Sequence record: PZ583739.1
Strand: one strand, 5' to 3'
DNA: 64,000 nucleotides
DNA from: a phage
Shown here piece by piece: positions 2,912-50,528 of this stretch (positions are counted from its first letter, which is position 1; every line of letters begins with the position of its first letter). The notes beneath the pieces were generated by a model, which had not been told where the DNA came from, did no database searches, and saw only the letters and a program-made list of their open reading frames with translations. The position numbers were made by a program, and so were the translations under genes.

Positions 2912-3173
2912 TAACGATTGAATCCACGATTAATTGCACGTTCAACAATCTTCCGGGTCTGACGTTTGTCCCACCAGTACATAAAACCAATACCAAATGC
3001 AGACAACAGCCATAGGCTAATCAATAACATACCAATCATAATATTCTTCTCGCAGTTCAGAGCAATTTAGTAAACGTTACCACGTTTCCAGTTTTCTTCA
3101 TTCAAATGCTTATTACGCTTTTCTAATAGCAACAAACCAATTACTGTTACAACAATCAGAAGTAATAATAACA

Positions 3174-3677
3174 TCAGTTAATACCTTGGCGTGCTTTCTC
3201 TTTAGCCACACATTTATTAATATAGCTCAGACGGTTTTGAGCAGAACGCTGATACATATCGCGGTACTCATTAGCTTTTGGAGAACCCGTCTCCGCTGCC
3301 TGATAAGCTTCTGCGCGCATGATGTTTATCTGCATATTGATATATGACATGCAGACCTGTGAAATCTGGTTAACAGTATCCAGGTCATTTTGTCGCTTAG
3401 TTTCTGCTTCCAGCTTGGCAATGATTTCGTCATGCTTCGCAGCTTGCTCGCGTTTGTACTCAATTTCTTGTTGAGCATATTTCGCGCAGTTGTTTCCACA
3501 TTGATTGTTGTCGCGTTTGTAGATAAGTCCAGTACCGCCTTTGAAATCAAAGGAACCATTATGCACCTGACGGTCTGCAGCAATTCGCGCTTTACCAATC
3601 TCGTTGGCATTAACAACATCACCCTGGTAAGCACAACCAGATAGCAGCATAACAGCTGCGATAGCTAACTTTTTCAT
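3174..3677 (-). CDS. Predicted lipoprotein, 167 aa
   Basis: N-terminus MKKLAIAAVMLLSGC (signal peptide + lipobox); RBS GAGGAAA upstream of ATG at 3677; ORF-track start at 3704 is a longer extension. Confidence 0.55.
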   Translation of the reverse strand: MKKLAIAAVMLLSGCAYQGDVVNANEIGKARIAADRQVHNGSFDFKGGTGLIYKRDNNQCGNNCAKYAQQEIEYKREQAAKHDEIIAKLEAETKRQNDLDTVNQISQVCMSYINMQINIMRAEAYQAAETGSPKANEYRDMYQRSAQNRLSYINKCVAKEKARQGIN

Positions 3678-4139: not shown

Positions 4140-6854
4140 TTAAAAGTCAAACATATCAAAAAGAGTTGCTTTCTTTTCGTAATCAACCTTTGCAGCTTCA
4201 GAGAAACCTGTTAATGGCTTAACAAAAGTCTTCTGGAACAGTATGTTGTAGTCCATCCACTGCAGAACCTGGTCACGGATTTCAATCGGGAGTTCAATCC
4301 CAGATGGCCATGCAATCACGGTTTCACCAAACGGGTTACCGACTTTAAGAGGAAGTACATACACCTTTTCCCCTTCCATGATTTGTGGAACAGTCTTCAG
4401 ACCTTTAGTTGCACGCATATATGCAAGCACACCTTTGATATGAGCCGGGCACTTAAATCCAGGGAAACCGCCTTCATTATATTTCTGGATGTTGTTAACC
4501 GATGATACACCTGCGATGGTCATGTAGTTAAGCTCATTAAATTCCTTATTGAATTCCTTGAAGTATGTCTGCAGAGATTCTTCACCTTCTTGCAGCATAC
4601 GGCGGATACATTCTTTCAGAGCTTTCTGACATGCCTTTGGAGTACTCGACTTTTGAGTTTCCAGACCCATGATTTTCAATTTCGGAACAGCATATCGTGT
4701 GCCTTCCATATCGTACACGTTCAGTGCATAACGCTTCTTCGCCGTCCAGAATCCACCCACACCCTTAGAACCCAGCGGAGGACATGCAATCGCTTCACGG
4801 TCCATAAACATAAGGTGCTGTTTGTTGTTCATGTATTCAGCCAGCTCACGGAAAGCTTTATCGATTGCCGGTTCCAGACGGTCTTTCGCAAACTTGTCCA
4901 TGAAGTCAACCAGGTGGTTTGTATCACGGAATTTAGATTCGCCACCAACCTTTTTAATCAGGTTATCGCACTGGATATAAATGGAGTCAGTATCGCCATA
5001 GAACACATAAGTTTCGCCGCTTGTCCCACAGACACTATCGAAGTATTCGTTAACTTTACGCTCAATCCACTGCAATGCAAGTTGTCCGAAAGATGTAATC
5101 GCGGTTGCATTTCGCAGGTCAAAGTAACGGAACCAGATATTGCCCAGAGCGCCATAACAACTGTTGATAAGCAGTTTACGGTTAATCTGTGCGGTCATGC
5201 CTGCAACTTCTTCCATCTGCGCTTTGTACAACATACCATTCAGGACTGTTTGATTCAGACCATGCAGGGCCGTTTTCATATTGTCATCAAAGTCATGACG
5301 ATAATCAACTTCTGGTTCGGTTGTGCCAGTTCCTGGATTACGCAGAGCTTCCTTAATCAGTTCACCATTACGTTGAGCCGCAAGCATATAGCCTTTGTGC
5401 TCTTTACGCTGATTAAACACCTTGGTGACTTCTGTCGGAATAATACCCGCAACATCTTTAAAATACATCATACCATTTGGAGCACAACTAAATGTATCAG
5501 ATGGACGGTCAGCAGTTCCTGCGATGTATTCATACATCGGCGCTGGGGCAAATGAACCGGCAATCGTTTCTGGACTGATATTAATCTGTCGGATGATGCT
5601 TGGATACAGAGATGTTAAGTCACAGCTCATCACATATTTGTACGCGTTCGGAATAGGTTCCTTAACAAATGCACCAGGGAACGATTGACGAACATGCGAT
5701 TTGGTTTCCGGAATGACTTTGTTTTGAGTCTTCAGGCTGTTAAAGATAATCGCATCCCAAGTTTTGATTGGGCTGAATACAGACTGAATCTGCATTTTTG
5801 CGTAATAACCCATTGACTGACTCAGGTTAATAAACTGCCGCTTACGGTCAATCTGCACAACACGATAAACGTCGATGATGTTATAAGAAATATACCGCTG
5901 GTGATTTGATTCACGCAGTTTAGAAATCGGACCATCATACGGGAGTTTACCAACACCCAGTTCAGATTCCGCAACATAATCCAACGAATAAGACGGTTGG
6001 TTTGTGAAGCTGAACTTTTTATACAGGTCCAGATAATCCAGAACAGAGATACCCAGAATCTGAATGATTTCTTGTTCTTCACCAAAGCCGTTGTTAATGA
6101 CCTTAACTTTTGTACGACGATGTGGGCTCAGACGTTTTGCCGTAGCTTCACCAAATACATTTTTAAGACGGTTGTAGATATATGGAATATCAAACTTCTC
6201 GATGTTCCAACCGGTTAACATAACCGGAGTTTTCTCGTTCCAGAATACCAAATACTGCTGGAGCATTTCTTCTTCTGAATCGAAAGCCATATAAACAATT
6301 TTTTCCAGGATTTCTTCAGGGACTTCATCACCACCGTCTTCCTGCAGCTTAGCAGCAATATCAATAGACCATTGCTCCACAGTGGCGTATGGTGAGCCCA
6401 AAAGGTCAAAGACATAGAATTTATCGTCTACCGAATCATAGTGCGTCAGGGCATCAATAGGGTGACGTGCTTCAGACGGTTCAGGGAACCCATCAGGAGA
6501 TGTCACCTCGATATCGAAGTTAGCAACACGGATTTTACTTGAATCATATTTGATTTCGTGTGGGTAACGGTCGGACAAGTATGCGAGTTTAAAGTCATCC
6601 ATACCCATAACTTCGAGGCCCATGTCATTCATTCGCTTCATCCACTGGGATGCATCACGCATGGAATCGAATTCTTTTTTCACACAACCTTTATTATAGA
6701 TGTCTGTATACTTTGCAGCCTGGCCTTCCCGGGCGTGCATAAACAAGCATGGGGCATAAGGGATTTCACGAACACGTTCATGACCATTCTTGTCAATATA
6801 TCGTTCGAGTAGGTTGTCACCGATTTGTTCGATAGTTAAATAAAATTCTTGCAT
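4140..6854 (-). CDS. 43: DNA polymerase gp43 (family B, with 3'-5' exonuclease)
   Basis: 904 aa; exo motifs FDIEV, Pol motifs DLTSLYPSII, KLLINSCYG, YGDTDS; C-terminal ...KKATLFDMFDF as in RB69/T4 gp43. Confidence 0.98.
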   Translation of the reverse strand: MQEFYLTIEQIGDNLLERYIDKNGHERVREIPYAPCLFMHAREGQAAKYTDIYNKGCVKKEFDSMRDASQWMKRMNDMGLEVMGMDDFKLAYLSDRYPHEIKYDSSKIRVANFDIEVTSPDGFPEPSEARHPIDALTHYDSVDDKFYVFDLLGSPYATVEQWSIDIAAKLQEDGGDEVPEEILEKIVYMAFDSEEEMLQQYLVFWNEKTPVMLTGWNIEKFDIPYIYNRLKNVFGEATAKRLSPHRRTKVKVINNGFGEEQEIIQILGISVLDYLDLYKKFSFTNQPSYSLDYVAESELGVGKLPYDGPISKLRESNHQRYISYNIIDVYRVVQIDRKRQFINLSQSMGYYAKMQIQSVFSPIKTWDAIIFNSLKTQNKVIPETKSHVRQSFPGAFVKEPIPNAYKYVMSCDLTSLYPSIIRQINISPETIAGSFAPAPMYEYIAGTADRPSDTFSCAPNGMMYFKDVAGIIPTEVTKVFNQRKEHKGYMLAAQRNGELIKEALRNPGTGTTEPEVDYRHDFDDNMKTALHGLNQTVLNGMLYKAQMEEVAGMTAQINRKLLINSCYGALGNIWFRYFDLRNATAITSFGQLALQWIERKVNEYFDSVCGTSGETYVFYGDTDSIYIQCDNLIKKVGGESKFRDTNHLVDFMDKFAKDRLEPAIDKAFRELAEYMNNKQHLMFMDREAIACPPLGSKGVGGFWTAKKRYALNVYDMEGTRYAVPKLKIMGLETQKSSTPKACQKALKECIRRMLQEGEESLQTYFKEFNKEFNELNYMTIAGVSSVNNIQKYNEGGFPGFKCPAHIKGVLAYMRATKGLKTVPQIMEGEKVYVLPLKVGNPFGETVIAWPSGIELPIEIRDQVLQWMDYNILFQKTFVKPLTGFSEAAKVDYEKKATLFDMFDF

Positions 6855-28452: not shown

Positions 28453-28977
28453 TTATGCGAGAACCGTCTTTAAACGCTCTTCAAACTTCTGAAGGAGTAC
28501 CTGGCGCTCTGCTCTTTGTTTGGTATAGGTTTCAATACGCTCTGAAGTGAGATTGTATTGTTCATTAACTGATTCCCGCATGAATTCAGGAATCTCTTTA
28601 CATGCTTTGATTTCATTGAACTTATCAAGCACCGCTTGTTGTTCAGCAATCAGACCATCATAATATTGGATATCTGATTTGATGTTTTGTACATCAGATT
28701 CAGTAGGCATATTTTTCTTTGCTCTTGTCGCCTGATACTCAGCATTAGTCTCTCTTGACCAGAACAAAGAGCGGTTTTTGTTGGTGTTTTTATACACATC
28801 AACAATACCAACTGAATCAACAGTCACAATCCAGTTCCAGGCGTTTTTATAAGTCTGACCACCTGATACTGTAATCTCACCTGCACGAGCAACATCATTA
28901 AAGAACTTACTTTGTGCTTCTGATTTAAAATTACCATTATTGTAATTAATCAGATTAAAGATTGATTTGGCTTCCAT
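28453..28977 (-). CDS. Hypothetical protein, 174 aa
   Basis: ORF directly downstream of early promoter at 29014-29042. Confidence 0.45.
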   Translation of the reverse strand: MEAKSIFNLINYNNGNFKSEAQSKFFNDVARAGEITVSGGQTYKNAWNWIVTVDSVGIVDVYKNTNKNRSLFWSRETNAEYQATRAKKNMPTESDVQNIKSDIQYYDGLIAEQQAVLDKFNEIKACKEIPEFMRESVNEQYNLTSERIETYTKQRAERQVLLQKFEERLKTVLA

Positions 28978-29013
28978 TTTATTCTCCAGTATTTGGTAAC
29001 TCAGTATGGGAAC

Positions 29014-29042
29014 ATTATACGTCTATCCCCATACTATGTACA
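29014..29042 (-). promoter_or_regulatory. T4-type early promoter cassette (PeSL-like)
   Basis: Minus strand: GTGTACA, 17 nt, TATAAT, then conserved leader GTTCCCATACTGAGTTACCAAATA. Confidence 0.5.
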
Positions 29043-29354: not shown

Positions 29355-29561
29355 TCACTTGCGACGACGTTTTGGTAATGGTTTAGGGAAGAACATTGCT
29401 TTACCTGCAGGGGTCAAAGTCACACGCAAAGCATTACCAATACCAAGGGATGCTTTAACCAGACCTTTGGCTTTTAACTCACCAAATGCTTGACGTTGTT
29501 CAGGGTCACGAGTGTTAACCATCAGACCTTTTTCACCAGCAGCTTTGATTAATTCTAACAT
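29355..29561 (-). CDS. Hypothetical protein, 68 aa
   Basis: ORF directly downstream of early promoter at 29603-29631. Confidence 0.4.
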   Translation of the reverse strand: MLELIKAAGEKGLMVNTRDPEQRQAFGELKAKGLVKASLGIGNALRVTLTPAGKAMFFPKPLPKRRRK

Positions 29562-29602
29562 TTTATTCTCCGTTTGTTTATTTGGTAACTCAGTATGGAA
29601 TC

Positions 29603-29631
29603 ATTATGTCCTAAGACAAGAGGCTTGTACA
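29603..29631 (-). promoter_or_regulatory. T4-type early promoter cassette (PeSL-like)
   Basis: Minus strand: GTGTACA, 17 nt, CATAAT, then GATTCCATACTGAGTTACCAAATAAAC. Confidence 0.5.
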
Positions 29632-44663: not shown

Positions 44664-44861
44664 TTAGCATTCGTAAGAGGAGGACACCCAAGAGGTACCA
44701 CTAATTGTAATACAACCATTATAAAGCGTGATATGTCGTTCTAGGTCACGAACACCATCGATATAGATATCAGCTTCTTCGCGTTCTTCTTTGCAAATCT
44801 GGATAACGTTTTCAATAGCTGCCGCAGCAGTACGGATTGCACAATCTAATTCACGAGACAT
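44664..44861 (-). CDS. Small protein, ~65 aa, C-terminal ...SWVSSSYEC
   Basis: Trimmed to ATG at 44861 with RBS AAGGAA; tandem paralogue. Confidence 0.45.
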   Translation of the reverse strand: MSRELDCAIRTAAAAIENVIQICKEEREEADIYIDGVRDLERHITLYNGCITISGTSWVSSSYEC

Positions 44862-44869
44862 AACATTCC

Positions 44870-45151
44870 TTAACATTCAGAAGAGGAGGACACCCAACCG
44901 CCTTTTTCCAGGTCAGTTGTATAGTCATGAGTATTAACAATAGCCCATTCAGGATGGCCATGTTCTTCCCAATGAGCAAGGTCGGCTTTCAGGGCGCCAG
45001 GAGAATAATAGTCACCGCCCATACCGCGAGCAGGGTATATATTAAAATGAGTCTCATATTTGTTTGCAATTTCCTCGGCACGACGAATAGCTTTATGGAT
45101 GTCATTTACTGCGTTAGCCAGTTCTTTATTTTTACGGTAATCATTCATCAT
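44870..45151 (-). CDS. Small protein, 93 aa, C-terminal ...GGWVSSSSEC
   Basis: Tandem paralogue; helical N-terminus. Confidence 0.45.
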   Translation of the reverse strand: MMNDYRKNKELANAVNDIHKAIRRAEEIANKYETHFNIYPARGMGGDYYSPGALKADLAHWEEHGHPEWAIVNTHDYTTDLEKGGWVSSSSEC

Positions 45152-45160
45152 AGAGTTTCC

Positions 45161-45451
45161 TTAGCACATTGCCGAAGAGGAGACCCAAGCACCAACTGTA
45201 ACGACACCGTTTTCAACTTCGCCGCCGTTGTTTTCAATTTCATCTTTAAACCACTTGGAGCATTCATAACCGACAGGATAATATGTACGGCCTGAACCAT
45301 AATCACCGGTACCGAATTGGATACCGTATTCATCTGCGATTTCTTCGCAGTGTTTTTCAATTTCAGAGGTCTTATTTAGAAGAGAATAGATAGCTTTTTC
45401 TGCAGATTTTTCATCATAATACTTGGGGATAGCAATTTCAATTTTATTCAT
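45161..45451 (-). CDS. Small protein, 96 aa, C-terminal ...GAWVSSSAMC
   Basis: Tandem paralogue. Confidence 0.45.
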   Translation of the reverse strand: MNKIEIAIPKYYDEKSAEKAIYSLLNKTSEIEKHCEEIADEYGIQFGTGDYGSGRTYYPVGYECSKWFKDEIENNGGEVENGVVTVGAWVSSSAMC

Positions 45452-47385: not shown

Positions 47386-47691
47386 TTAGATTTTGTTTTC
47401 CTGCACACCATAATAAAGTTCATCAGACACGATATCCAGGATGCGGCGAACATATTCATCATGGTATTGGCAGTCAAAATCAAATGCAACAGTAGTTTCC
47501 GCTTCACGAGTGAATTTAACTTGCACATTCAGGTGATTAACAACGTTAGTTAATTTATCAGTAAAGAACTCTTTTGCTACCGCCTGTTGGACTTGCACTT
47601 TGAACTTGGTGTTACGAATCATATTTTCAGCAGATGCGAAATTACCAGTTTTATCAAAGTCAACAAGCGCCAGGTTGATGATGAATTTCAT
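47386..47691 (-). CDS. Hypothetical protein, 101 aa
   Basis: RBS GGAG; directly downstream of promoter 47733-47761. Confidence 0.45.
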   Translation of the reverse strand: MKFIINLALVDFDKTGNFASAENMIRNTKFKVQVQQAVAKEFFTDKLTNVVNHLNVQVKFTREAETTVAFDFDCQYHDEYVRRILDIVSDELYYGVQENKI

Positions 47692-47732
47692 TTTATTCTC
47701 CAGTGTTTTATTTGGTAACTCAGTATGGAATC

Positions 47733-47761
47733 ATTATGCCTTAAAGCAGGGGGCTTGTATA
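47733..47761 (-). promoter_or_regulatory. T4-type early promoter cassette (PeSL-like)
   Basis: Minus strand: GTATACA, 17 nt, CATAAT, then GATTCCATACTGAGTTACCAAATAAA; -35 sits inside the GGGGGcuuguauaCCCCC hairpin. Confidence 0.5.
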
Positions 47762-47773
47762 CCCCCTTTTTAA

Positions 47774-48205
47774 TTAAATTTCAAATTCTTTTCGGAAGTT
47801 GGAAGCATAAGACTGAACTGATGCTTTGTTGAATCCAAACTCACGCACAATCATATCAATAACAGCTCTGCGAGCAGCACCATTAGACATATTAACAGTT
47901 TTGAACATATCATAGCATAAATCTTTGTTGCTCATACCGGAGCGTTTAGGTGCTTTTGGTTCAGCTTTAGGAGTAGGTTTAACTTCTGGTTTAACCTGTC
48001 CATCATTCAGACCTTTAAAAATTTTACCTGCCAGAGTTGCCAGTTTAGCAGCTTCGCCACGAGTGATACCAAATACTGCCGGGTTAAATGAAATACCTTC
48101 AGCTGTCAGACGTTTGAAGAACATACGTGCTGCGGATTGTGCTTCAGCTTCAGAAGAGTTGTTTAATGCCAGTTTAACATACTTAACCAGTTTTGAAGTT
48201 TTCAT
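47774..48205 (-). CDS. Hypothetical protein, 143 aa, paralogue of 48289-48714
   Basis: Trimmed to ATG at 48205 (MKTSKLVKY...); C-terminal ...AARRAVIDMIV...VQSYASNFRKEFEI. Confidence 0.45.
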   Translation of the reverse strand: MKTSKLVKYVKLALNNSSEAEAQSAARMFFKRLTAEGISFNPAVFGITRGEAAKLATLAGKIFKGLNDGQVKPEVKPTPKAEPKAPKRSGMSNKDLCYDMFKTVNMSNGAARRAVIDMIVREFGFNKASVQSYASNFRKEFEI

Positions 48206-48247
48206 TTTATTATCCCGTTTGTTTATTTGGTAACTCAGTATGGGATA

Positions 48248-48276
48248 ATTATACACTATCCCACCTGGAAGTAAAA
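48248..48276 (-). promoter_or_regulatory. T4-type early promoter cassette (PeSL-like)
   Basis: Minus strand: GTTTTAC, 17 nt, TATAAT, then TATCCCATACTGAGTTACCAAATAAA. Confidence 0.5.
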
Positions 48277-48288
48277 CACTTTTCTCAA

Positions 48289-48714
48289 TTATTTTTGAGC
48301 TTTGCGGAAGTTGGAAGCATATGACTGAACAACAGTCTTTTTGATATCATGGGTGGTAACCAGAACATCAATCAGAGCACGACGAGCTGCATTATCATTC
48401 ATATCAATTTCTGCAAATGCCTGGAAGCAAATGTCACGAGCGTTACCAGATTTGGACTGGATTTTTTCTTCTTTAACTTCTTCAATTGGGAATTCAATCA
48501 TTTCAGCTTGGATTAATTCAATAATAGATTCTTTTGACTGTTTGGTGTTTACCTTCAGTTCAGAATTAAGGGACTTGGCGATGGCAACAATCTGGGTTGA
48601 AGTCAGATGGATAAGTGCATCTTCACGAATGCAGATTTCACATACTTCGTCGGCAACCATTTTGTTAGTGATGCGGGTAACAGAGAATGCAGAGGTCAGG
48701 GTCAGAAAGTTCAT
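48289..48714 (-). CDS. Hypothetical protein, 141 aa, paralogue of 47774-48205
   Basis: Trimmed to ATG at 48714 (MNFLTLTSAF...); C-terminal ...AARRALIDVLV...VQSYASNFRKAQK. Confidence 0.45.
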   Translation of the reverse strand: MNFLTLTSAFSVTRITNKMVADEVCEICIREDALIHLTSTQIVAIAKSLNSELKVNTKQSKESIIELIQAEMIEFPIEEVKEEKIQSKSGNARDICFQAFAEIDMNDNAARRALIDVLVTTHDIKKTVVQSYASNFRKAQK

Positions 48715-48765
48715 TTTATTTCTCCAAAGTTTTGTTTGATTCAGTGTGTAACTCAATATGGAATC

Positions 48766-48794
48766 ATTATGCACCCGGTCAATTCGGATGTACA
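48766..48794 (-). promoter_or_regulatory. T4-type early promoter cassette (PeSL-like)
   Basis: Minus strand: GTGTACA, 17 nt, CATAAT, then GATTCCATATTGAGTTACACACTG. Confidence 0.5.
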
Positions 48795-48830
48795 CTACTT
48801 TTTGAAGAAAATTTCAAATTTATTCAGGGT

Positions 48831-48854
48831 ATAAAAAAGCCCGCATTGCGGGCT
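48831..48854 (-). terminator. Rho-independent terminator
   Basis: Minus-strand hairpin AGCCCGCaaugGCGGGCU followed by U6. Confidence 0.6.
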
Positions 48855-48855
48855 G

Positions 48856-49410
48856 TTAGTTCTTATAAAAACGGAACGGATTTATATGAAAGGCGAGCAT
48901 AGCCTTAGGGATGGGTCGGGACAGAAGGCTCTTGAGCTTCCAGCCACAATAAACACGCAGATAAAAGGTGATTCCACCGACCTTAAGATAAGGAACAGAA
49001 GCAAAAACACCCCAGGCATTGTCCGTCCACATAAAGAGCCATCCATGATGAGCTTTATCCGGGGAACCAGATTCGACATCAGGATTACCTTTATAATGGA
49101 ATTCTGAATTGCAATCACGACCGAGCTTGTGGTAAGCAAAATTGTATGCTTTGTTTCGCCAGAGCCAGGCTACTCGTTGAAAGTAAACACCTAATGGCCA
49201 TTTTCGGATTTTTGACCAACGTTTGACATGACCTCGGTCACCATCAATCGGATTATCATAAGTCATCATCCAATCAAATCCGAACGGAAGTTTACCAGTC
49301 TTTTTATTATGGAACGGAACTACAAATGGAGCCAGGATAACGGCCAGAATCATGGAGATAAAATCCAGCGGAACTAACAGAATCCAACTCAAATATTTTA
49401 ACAGTTTCAT
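48856..49410 (-). CDS. Membrane protein, ~184 aa
   Basis: Trimmed to MKLLKYLSWILLVPLDFISMILAVILAPFVVPF (N-terminal TM); Trp/His-rich; TATAAATC (late-promoter-like, 7/8) lies 20 nt upstream. Confidence 0.45.
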   Translation of the reverse strand: MKLLKYLSWILLVPLDFISMILAVILAPFVVPFHNKKTGKLPFGFDWMMTYDNPIDGDRGHVKRWSKIRKWPLGVYFQRVAWLWRNKAYNFAYHKLGRDCNSEFHYKGNPDVESGSPDKAHHGWLFMWTDNAWGVFASVPYLKVGGITFYLRVYCGWKLKSLLSRPIPKAMLAFHINPFRFYKN

Positions 49411-49432
49411 ACGTTTCTCTTTAGTTGATTTA

Positions 49433-49461
49433 TAAAAAAGCCCCAACCTTTCGGAAGGGGC
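49433..49461 (-). terminator. Rho-independent terminator
   Basis: Minus-strand hairpin AGCCCCuuccgaaagguuGGGGCU followed by U6. Confidence 0.55.
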
Positions 49462-49499
49462 TATACCTTGTCGGGGTTCCACCTGCAAGGCAAGTGTTC

Positions 49500-50375: not shown

Positions 50376-50452
50376 TGGTCGGGGTGGTGGGATTCTAACC
50401 CACAACCTACGGTTTAGAAGACCGTTGCTCTATACAATTGAGCTACACCCCG
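50376..50452 (-). tRNA. tRNA-Arg (anticodon UCU), CCA encoded
   Basis: Hand-folded cloverleaf: acceptor CGGGGTG/CACCCCG, anticodon stem ACGGT/ACCGT, loop CTTCTAA, T-arm GTGGG-TTAGAAT-CCCAC, discriminator A + CCA. Confidence 0.8.
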
Positions 50453-50454
50453 GG

Positions 50455-50528
50455 TGGCCCCATCCGGACTTGAACCGGAAACCTGCCAGTTATGAGCCGG
50501 ATGCTCTAACCAATTGAGCTACAGGGCC
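50455..50528 (-). tRNA. tRNA with CAU anticodon (Met, or Ile if lysidine-modified)
   Basis: Hand-folded: acceptor GGCCCTG/TGGGGCC, D-arm GCTC-AATTGGTTA-GAGC, anticodon loop CTCATAA, T-arm TCCGG-TTCAAGT-CCGGA. Confidence 0.8.

Follow-up and report, generated by a model that had tools for sequence, protein, structure and literature searches.

A small, phage-restricted C-terminal domain shared by two neighbouring genes of a Gaprivervirus

Among T4-type phages, repeated cassettes in which an early promoter is accompanied by a stem-loop, the PeSLs, have been described in front of ORFans in hyperplastic regions, where they mediate modular shuffling (Arbiol et al. 2010, PMC2839356; Comeau et al. 2014, PMC4122927). 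A text search of these two papers shows no Gaprivervirus among the phages analysed. The stretch studied here, 64,000 nucleotides of record PZ583739.1 and referred to as the window, was placed by megablast among the Gapriverviruses (T4-type; SP18, VR7, VR20, VR25, VR26) with 94–98% identity. In the variable part of this genome, between a homologue of e.6 and the tRNA and internal-protein (ip) genes, two adjacent open reading frames (ORFs) were found on the minus strand, each preceded by a PeSL-like cassette. ORF A (47774..48205; ATG at 48205, stop at 47774) encodes 143 aa and ORF B (48289..48714; ATG at 48714, stop at 48289) encodes 141 aa, with the stop codons included in the coordinates.

In PHROGs, ORF A, the A-type member, matches phrog_18416 over its full length (residues 1–143, E = 1.7e-88) and ORF B, the B-type member, matches phrog_9997 in the same way (residues 1–141, E = 1.5e-71). 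The C-terminal domains (C-domains) of both also match phrog_17275 (71 positions). The three are listed there as separate families, all of ‘unknown function’, and neither their common domain nor their recurrence at the same locus is recorded. PeSL-type ORFan cassettes are already known; at this locus they come with an undescribed, narrowly distributed small domain.

The shared C-terminal domain and its N-terminal partners

A BLASTP comparison of A and B gave 27 identities over 58 positions (47%, E = 7e-17), confined to residues 82–139 of A and 82–138 of B. When the orthologue alignments of both proteins were compared by hhalign, 46 columns were aligned, all C-terminal, with a probability of 98.6% (E = 8e-16), and the N-terminal halves showed no similarity to each other (best E = 0.76). 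Judged by their sequences, A and B are genuine paralogues over the ~50 residues at the C-terminus. This bears out the original prediction of two ~142-aa proteins with a common C-terminus including VQSYASNFRK; the similarity is not limited to a few residues, as it covers a block of ~50 residues confined to the C-terminal third. When the window itself was searched by tblastn, there was, apart from A and B, just one weak match, at 4539–4634, which lies inside a 904-aa DNA polymerase ORF and was dismissed as chance.

AlphaFold2 models of A and B were built with the orthologue alignments, reaching a mean predicted local distance difference test score (pLDDT) of 76.7 and 84.5, respectively. Both models consist of two domains joined by a disordered linker. 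In ORF A, the predicted N-terminal domain (N-domain; 48008..48205, minus strand, residues 1–66, pLDDT 74–85) is all-helical, with a hairpin and a third helix (helices 3–15, 19–36 and 49–58); it carries the motif KYVKLALNNSSEAEAQSAARMFF and is conserved in the orthologues. It is followed by a Lys/Pro-rich linker, KPEVKPTPKAEPKAPK (47933..48007, minus strand, residues 67–91, pLDDT below 50 at 70–88), with a net charge of +3 and a length that differs among orthologues, and by the C-domain (47777..47932, minus strand, residues 92–143, pLDDT 86–91) with helices 93–101, 109–123 and 127–141. The N-domain of ORF B (48490..48714, minus strand, residues 1–75, pLDDT 84–94) is modelled with strands 3–6, 12–16 and 27–30 and helices 31–36, 39–49 and 61–74. 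An acidic, partly disordered linker (48445..48489, minus strand, residues 76–90, pLDDT below 50 at 84–89) connects it to the C-domain (48292..48444, minus strand, residues 91–141), in which the helices span residues 92–100, 108–122 and 126–140. Across both models, the three-helix C-domain has a pLDDT of 82–91. As a whole, A is strongly basic (isoelectric point (pI) 10.0, net charge +12) and B is acidic (pI 5.7).

The N-terminal halves had been called divergent in the original prediction. No similarity between them is indeed detectable, but they are better seen as different domains: since no residual N-terminal similarity is left and the predicted N-terminal folds differ, the joining of unlike domains to a common C-domain fits better than the divergence of a single domain.

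In both proteins, the last helix of the C-domain carries VQSYASNFRK. Among 23 family members, helix 1 has an invariant Cys and an invariant Phe, helix 3 has an invariant V-Q-x-Y, and the two Ser of VQSYAS are conserved in at least 90%. On helix 3, V, Q, S, Y and S are among the residues that all types have in common. Assuming a normal helical periodicity, the Q, S, S, N, R and K residues of helix 3 would face outwards, a mix typical of a recognition helix. The domain is mildly basic, with a net charge between 0 and +5 in 13 members.

Searches for known relatives were made with both proteins. No match near the threshold was found for A or B in Pfam and NCBIfam, where the matches to PBP_like, HrpF, Crl and CT847 were all far below the cut-offs, and the PHROG annotation does not give a function either. 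Foldseek against the PDB returned no match below E = 1 for either model, the same program found only family members in BFVD, and sequence searches of the PDB yielded nothing significant. For the N-domain of A, T7 Gp2 was rejected (E around 1), and DUF2786 (PF10979) stayed below the gathering score, with a best E of 0.16 in one of six A-type members. T4 internal proteins IPI–III carry an N-terminal capsid-targeting sequence of the MKTYQEFIAE type. Such a sequence is absent from A, which starts with MKTSKLVKYV, and from B, which starts with MNFLTLTSAF, and an internal head protein was rejected for both.

The N-domain of B is reminiscent of the SAP/HeH/Rho_N domains. Helices 39–49 and 61–74, with the 11-residue loop between them, would, going by the model, form a helix-extended loop-helix arrangement like that of SAP/Rho_N; they carry the pattern LTSTQIVAIAKSLNSELKVNTKQSKESIIELIQ, and one public record (EAWsc9) labels the B orthologue as a ‘rho-N domain-containing protein’. 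A difference is the three-stranded element that precedes the helix-loop-helix, which is not typical of SAP domains. Using Foldseek, the B model gave weak matches to the L11 C-terminal domain, DEK and SAP-domain proteins, all at E of at least 1; compared by eye with the E. coli L11 sequence, the repeated L11 matches presumably reflect the helix-loop-helix of the N-domain. Pfam Rho_N and SAP gave no match at E ≤ 10 in any of 19 members, so that profiles lend no support, and a SAP/Rho_N-kind element in the modelled N-domain of B is plausible from the model and the one annotation.

Distribution, age and gene order of the family

Following the suggestion in the original prediction that the VQSYASNFRK block be sought in other phages, relatives were found: the C-domain was detected by tblastn in 46 of 50,697 phage records. 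The carriers are Gapriverviruses, Morganella and Providencia Gualtarviruses, the Acinetobacter phages ZZ1, W16, Henu6 and 133, and Erwinia phage RF1. When 1.84 billion cluster representatives were searched exhaustively with HMMER, ~16 genuine clusters were retrieved. Long repetitive proteins with 5–15 short matching stretches each (P0032, P0038–P0042) were also retrieved and were discarded as spurious low-complexity matches. Among 185,579 genomes of bacteria and archaea scanned with a pattern, no family member was identified. The C-domain family is tiny, phage-restricted and so far undescribed.

Within this family, the domain occurs in several contexts. The HMMER search revealed a further N-terminal variant (P0029, P0034) and an A-type protein with an insert (P0035). 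The Providencia phage has a single stand-alone C-domain of 74 aa, and Acinetobacter phages ZZ1 and 133 each have one matching place, a B-type gene. The Gapriverviruses carry a third paralogue outside the window, a stand-alone C-domain of 71 aa (VR7ORF277c / VR26_274) that ends 3 nt before the start of motA; in VR26 (L012) it is located at 3001–3216, between the homologues of gene 52 and motA.

For both the A-type and the B-type, orthologues are found in L011 (another T4-type contig), Morganella phage MP1 and non-T4 phages of ~45 kb. The latter comprise metagenomic contigs of ~45.6 kb (L008–L010) and Erwinia phage RF1 (L003) and have a different terminase and portal. In L008–L010, no genes other than B, a 44-aa ORF and A lie on the plus strand, while the neighbours are on the minus strand. 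In L011, the order is the DUF7338 gene, B, A, the Y16K gene and the e.6 homologue. Morganella phage MP1 has A, one intervening gene and then B, an order reversed compared to the window, and an annotated coding sequence of 167 aa separates B and A in Erwinia phage RF1. By eye only, this 167-aa product resembles an HNH nuclease. The adjacency of A and B is not fixed, as phages CJ20 (see below), MP1 and RF1 each differ.

A neighbour-joining tree of the C-domains groups them by type and not by genome, indicating that the duplication is older than the spread among these phages. As far as can be read from the sequences, A and B are an ancient paralogue pair and not a recent local tandem duplicate. 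The genes are adjacent, their lengths and promoter cassettes are alike, and a DNA block of 31 nt (repeat family D7) is 94% identical between them, which might suggest that a tandem duplication took place recently in this phage and that the N-terminal half then diverged fast. However, the same codons are used for this block in other phage genomes, and amino-acid conservation together with codon bias suffices to explain it without a recent duplication or conversion; gene conversion between A and B was discarded as unneeded for the same reason. Moreover, distant phages carry separate orthologues of A and of B, the tree groups the C-domains by type, and the predicted N-terminal folds differ. A recent duplication is already contradicted by these data and is very improbable. 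The original prediction of a duplicated module whose N-terminal domain has diverged is not supported as it stands, in view of the missing N-terminal similarity, the different folds, the age of the duplication and the variable adjacency.

All T4-type phages examined have their family members at ~0.2–2 kb from a tRNA cluster; in the window, tRNA-Arg(tct) and tRNA-Met(cat) lie next to each other at 50376–50528 (minus strand). This closeness is probably shared synteny of the variable region.

Possible targets of the C-terminal domain

The predicted C-domain is a three-helix bundle of ~50 residues in which helices 2 and 3 form a helix-turn-helix (HTH), as in homeodomain-like proteins, and its last helix carries V-Q-x-aromatic-x-x-N-x-R-K. 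With a C-domain profile, the best match in the PDB was the ATBF1 homeodomain (2da3), at a marginal E of 0.025, or 0.0092 with a broader profile. Over helix 2, the turn and helix 3, HMMER aligned GLKKRVVQVWFQNTR of ATBF1 with GFkKRVVQSYASNYR. A homeodomain has a helix 2 of roughly 10 residues. The C-domain differs in its longer helix 2 of 15 residues and has no basic N-terminal arm.

The explanation favoured here, with a probability of about 0.4, is that the C-domain is an HTH-like targeting module, most likely nucleic-acid-binding, fused to different effector domains. One conserved ligand is suggested by helix 3, which is near-invariant whatever the N-domain and in phages of four host genera (Escherichia, Morganella, Acinetobacter and Erwinia). 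Nucleic-acid binding is the first choice in view of the residues of this helix (Q, S, S, N, R, K), a domain charge that is mildly positive, the KP-rich, H1-like tail of A and the SAP-like element of B. According to this scheme, the almost invariant helix 3 (VVQSYASN[YF]RK) would contact one common, conserved ligand, most likely nucleic acid, and the N-domains would supply differing activities at the target, SAP-like in the acidic B and basic helical with a Lys/Pro-rich tail in A. Both might act early in infection, in host take-over or in the modulation of the nucleoid or of transcription, as early-expressed, non-essential accessory proteins.

Several points weigh against this explanation. No DNA- or RNA-binding family was matched significantly in Pfam, NCBIfam or, using Foldseek, the PDB, and only one homeodomain was matched of the many in the PDB. 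Similarly, hhalign against a hand-written homeodomain alignment gave a probability of 4.7%. The C-domain carries a modest net charge, and B is acidic overall. Based on the single match at E = 0.0092, the 4.7% and the Foldseek E-values above 1, homeodomain membership was rejected as unproven and the likeness is regarded as a resemblance only. Finally, an invariant exposed helix suits protein-protein recognition equally well.

The C-domain might instead be a protein-protein module by which A, B and the stand-alone copy would bind one another or dock on one conserved host or phage protein, e.g., RNA polymerase, with the N-domains as effectors. Both types recur at the same locus in unrelated phages, the pair is composed of one basic (A) and one acidic (B) protein, and the near-invariance of helix 3 across four host genera argues for a universal ligand over a phage-specific DNA site. 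The third paralogue abuts motA, in an asiA-motA neighbourhood. In addition, the Phe or Tyr of the motif agrees between A and B of the same genome (Phe in both in the window and L011; Tyr in both in RF1, L008 and MP1). Yet the pair is not obligatory, given that ZZ1 and 133 have one B-type gene each and the Providencia phage has a lone C-domain. This is the main alternative, considered possible but unlikely.

A more far-reaching reading would be a new phage-only binding domain, used with at least three different N-domains and alone, by which A and B jointly act on one conserved host target (DNA, RNA or RNA polymerase). This reading is doubtful at present; if true, a small modular ‘adaptor’ system would have been moved between T4-type and unrelated 45-kb phages. 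Neither Pfam nor NCBIfam contains the C-domain, no structural relative of it was detected, and the near-invariance of its helix 3 points to a specific conserved target. If this target is host DNA, RNA or RNA polymerase, the pair joins the early take-over factors; otherwise, A and B are two more hypothetical early proteins.

Promoter/leader cassettes and neighbouring genes

The motif ATAATNATYCCATAYTGAGTTAC is present in five copies in the window, all on the minus strand, compared to 0.01 expected. Three of them lie upstream of B, of A and of a 101-aa ORF downstream of A, and these three spacers align over ~85 nt. The other two copies, at 28996–29018 and 29585–29607 (minus strand), are found before a 174-aa ORF (28453..28977) and a basic 68-aa ORF (29355..29561). 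All five precede small ORFs of unknown function. The cassettes have a common layout of an AT-rich stretch, a -35-like hexamer, a spacer of 16–17 nt, a -10 box (CATAAT or TATAAT) and a conserved leader, GATTCCATACTGAGTTACCAAATAAA..GGAG.AATAAAATG.

The cassette of ORF A occupies the spacer between B and A (48206..48288, minus strand), with a -35 TTTACT at 48275–48270, a 16-nt spacer and a -10 TATAAT at 48253–48248, followed by the conserved leader ...CCCATACTGAGTTACCAAATAAAC..GGGATAATAAAATG (repeat family D1). No convincing stem-loop was found in this B–A spacer. The cassette of ORF B (48715..48810, minus strand) has a -35 TGTACA at 48794–48789, a 17-nt spacer, a -10 CATAAT at 48771–48766 and the conserved leader with an insertion of 9 nt and GGAG before the ATG. 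Upstream of it lies a terminator-like hairpin of 7 bp at 48838..48854 (minus strand), AGCCCGCAATGCGGGCT followed by TTTTTT. The third cassette (47692..47773, minus strand), before the 101-aa ORF, consists of a -35 TATACA at 47761–47756, a 17-nt spacer, a -10 CATAAT at 47738–47733 and the conserved leader; its stem-loop AGGGGG-N8-CCCCCT (47748–47767) overlaps the -35 box. GTG-started, longer versions of both ORFs, of 160 and 168 aa, are also present in the ORF list and reach into the promoter cassettes. The ATG starts were preferred because they have GGAG or GGGA just in front and because the same starts are annotated in related phages.

These cassettes resemble PeSLs. They are intergenic repeats of ~80–100 nt with a sigma-70-like -35/-10 pair, an AT-rich upstream part, a Shine-Dalgarno site and a start codon, and the small genes that follow them, in a hyperplastic region, have no assigned function. 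They also bound an insertion/deletion between close relatives (see below). The stem-loop of a PeSL is G/C-rich, adjoins or overlaps the promoter and acts as a terminator or attenuator. Differences are the -35 boxes, which are TGTACA, TATACA and TTTACT instead of TTGACA, the location of the best-conserved part in the transcribed leader (CCATACTGAGTTACCAAATAAA), and the stem-loops, which stand out upstream of B and downstream of A and are lacking in the B–A spacer. The cassettes are regarded as putative PeSL-type elements, i.e. predicted early promoters, with an activity inferred from the consensus only. As originally proposed, each gene has its own copy of a PeSL-like early-promoter cassette; the stem-loop part is clear for B and not clear for A.

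In phage CJ20 (L024, 1221–1680), B and A are separated by an inserted 98-aa ORF with a cassette copy on either side, whereas one cassette stands there in the window. Relative to the window, this amounts to a cassette-type indel and is direct evidence of cassette-mediated shuffling at the A/B locus. The repeated promoter/leader cassettes would let each gene be transcribed early on its own and act as points of recombination at which gene cassettes are inserted or deleted. The locus neatly illustrates, on a small scale, how accessory genes are built and shuffled in T4-type phages: recombination would occur at promoter-bearing cassettes, and one orphan domain is combined with unlike partner domains.

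As a further alternative, A and B might be counter-defence or host-range accessory genes that act independently of nucleic-acid binding, with the shared domain as a stability or localisation module. The region is a hyperplastic one, with non-essential ORFans and with cassettes gained or lost between close relatives, the distribution of the family is patchy and phage-only, and L011 has NUDIX and Acb2/Tad1-hairpin genes a few kb away. On the other hand, no similarity to a known anti-defence protein was found in the Pfam and PHROGs scans, and location alone is weak evidence. A role of this kind is judged improbable.

The gene upstream of B (48856..49488, minus strand), which ends at the hairpin at 48838–48854, encodes a DUF7338-like, putative membrane protein, and its translation closely matches the counterpart in L011, which carries Pfam DUF7338. 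Downstream of A, the 101-aa ORF with its own cassette (47386..47691, minus strand) belongs to phrog_7474 (unknown function) and is not paralogous to A or B.

A second group of small genes was noticed elsewhere in the window. At 44664–45451 on the minus strand, three consecutive small ORFs end with WVSSSYEC, WVSSSSEC and WVSSSAMC. They are located at 44664..44876 (70 aa), 44870..45151 (93 aa) and 45161..45451 (96 aa), and a block of ~33 nt is common to all three (repeat family D2). From their sequences, these ORFs look like another tandem paralogue set with only a C-terminal tag in common.

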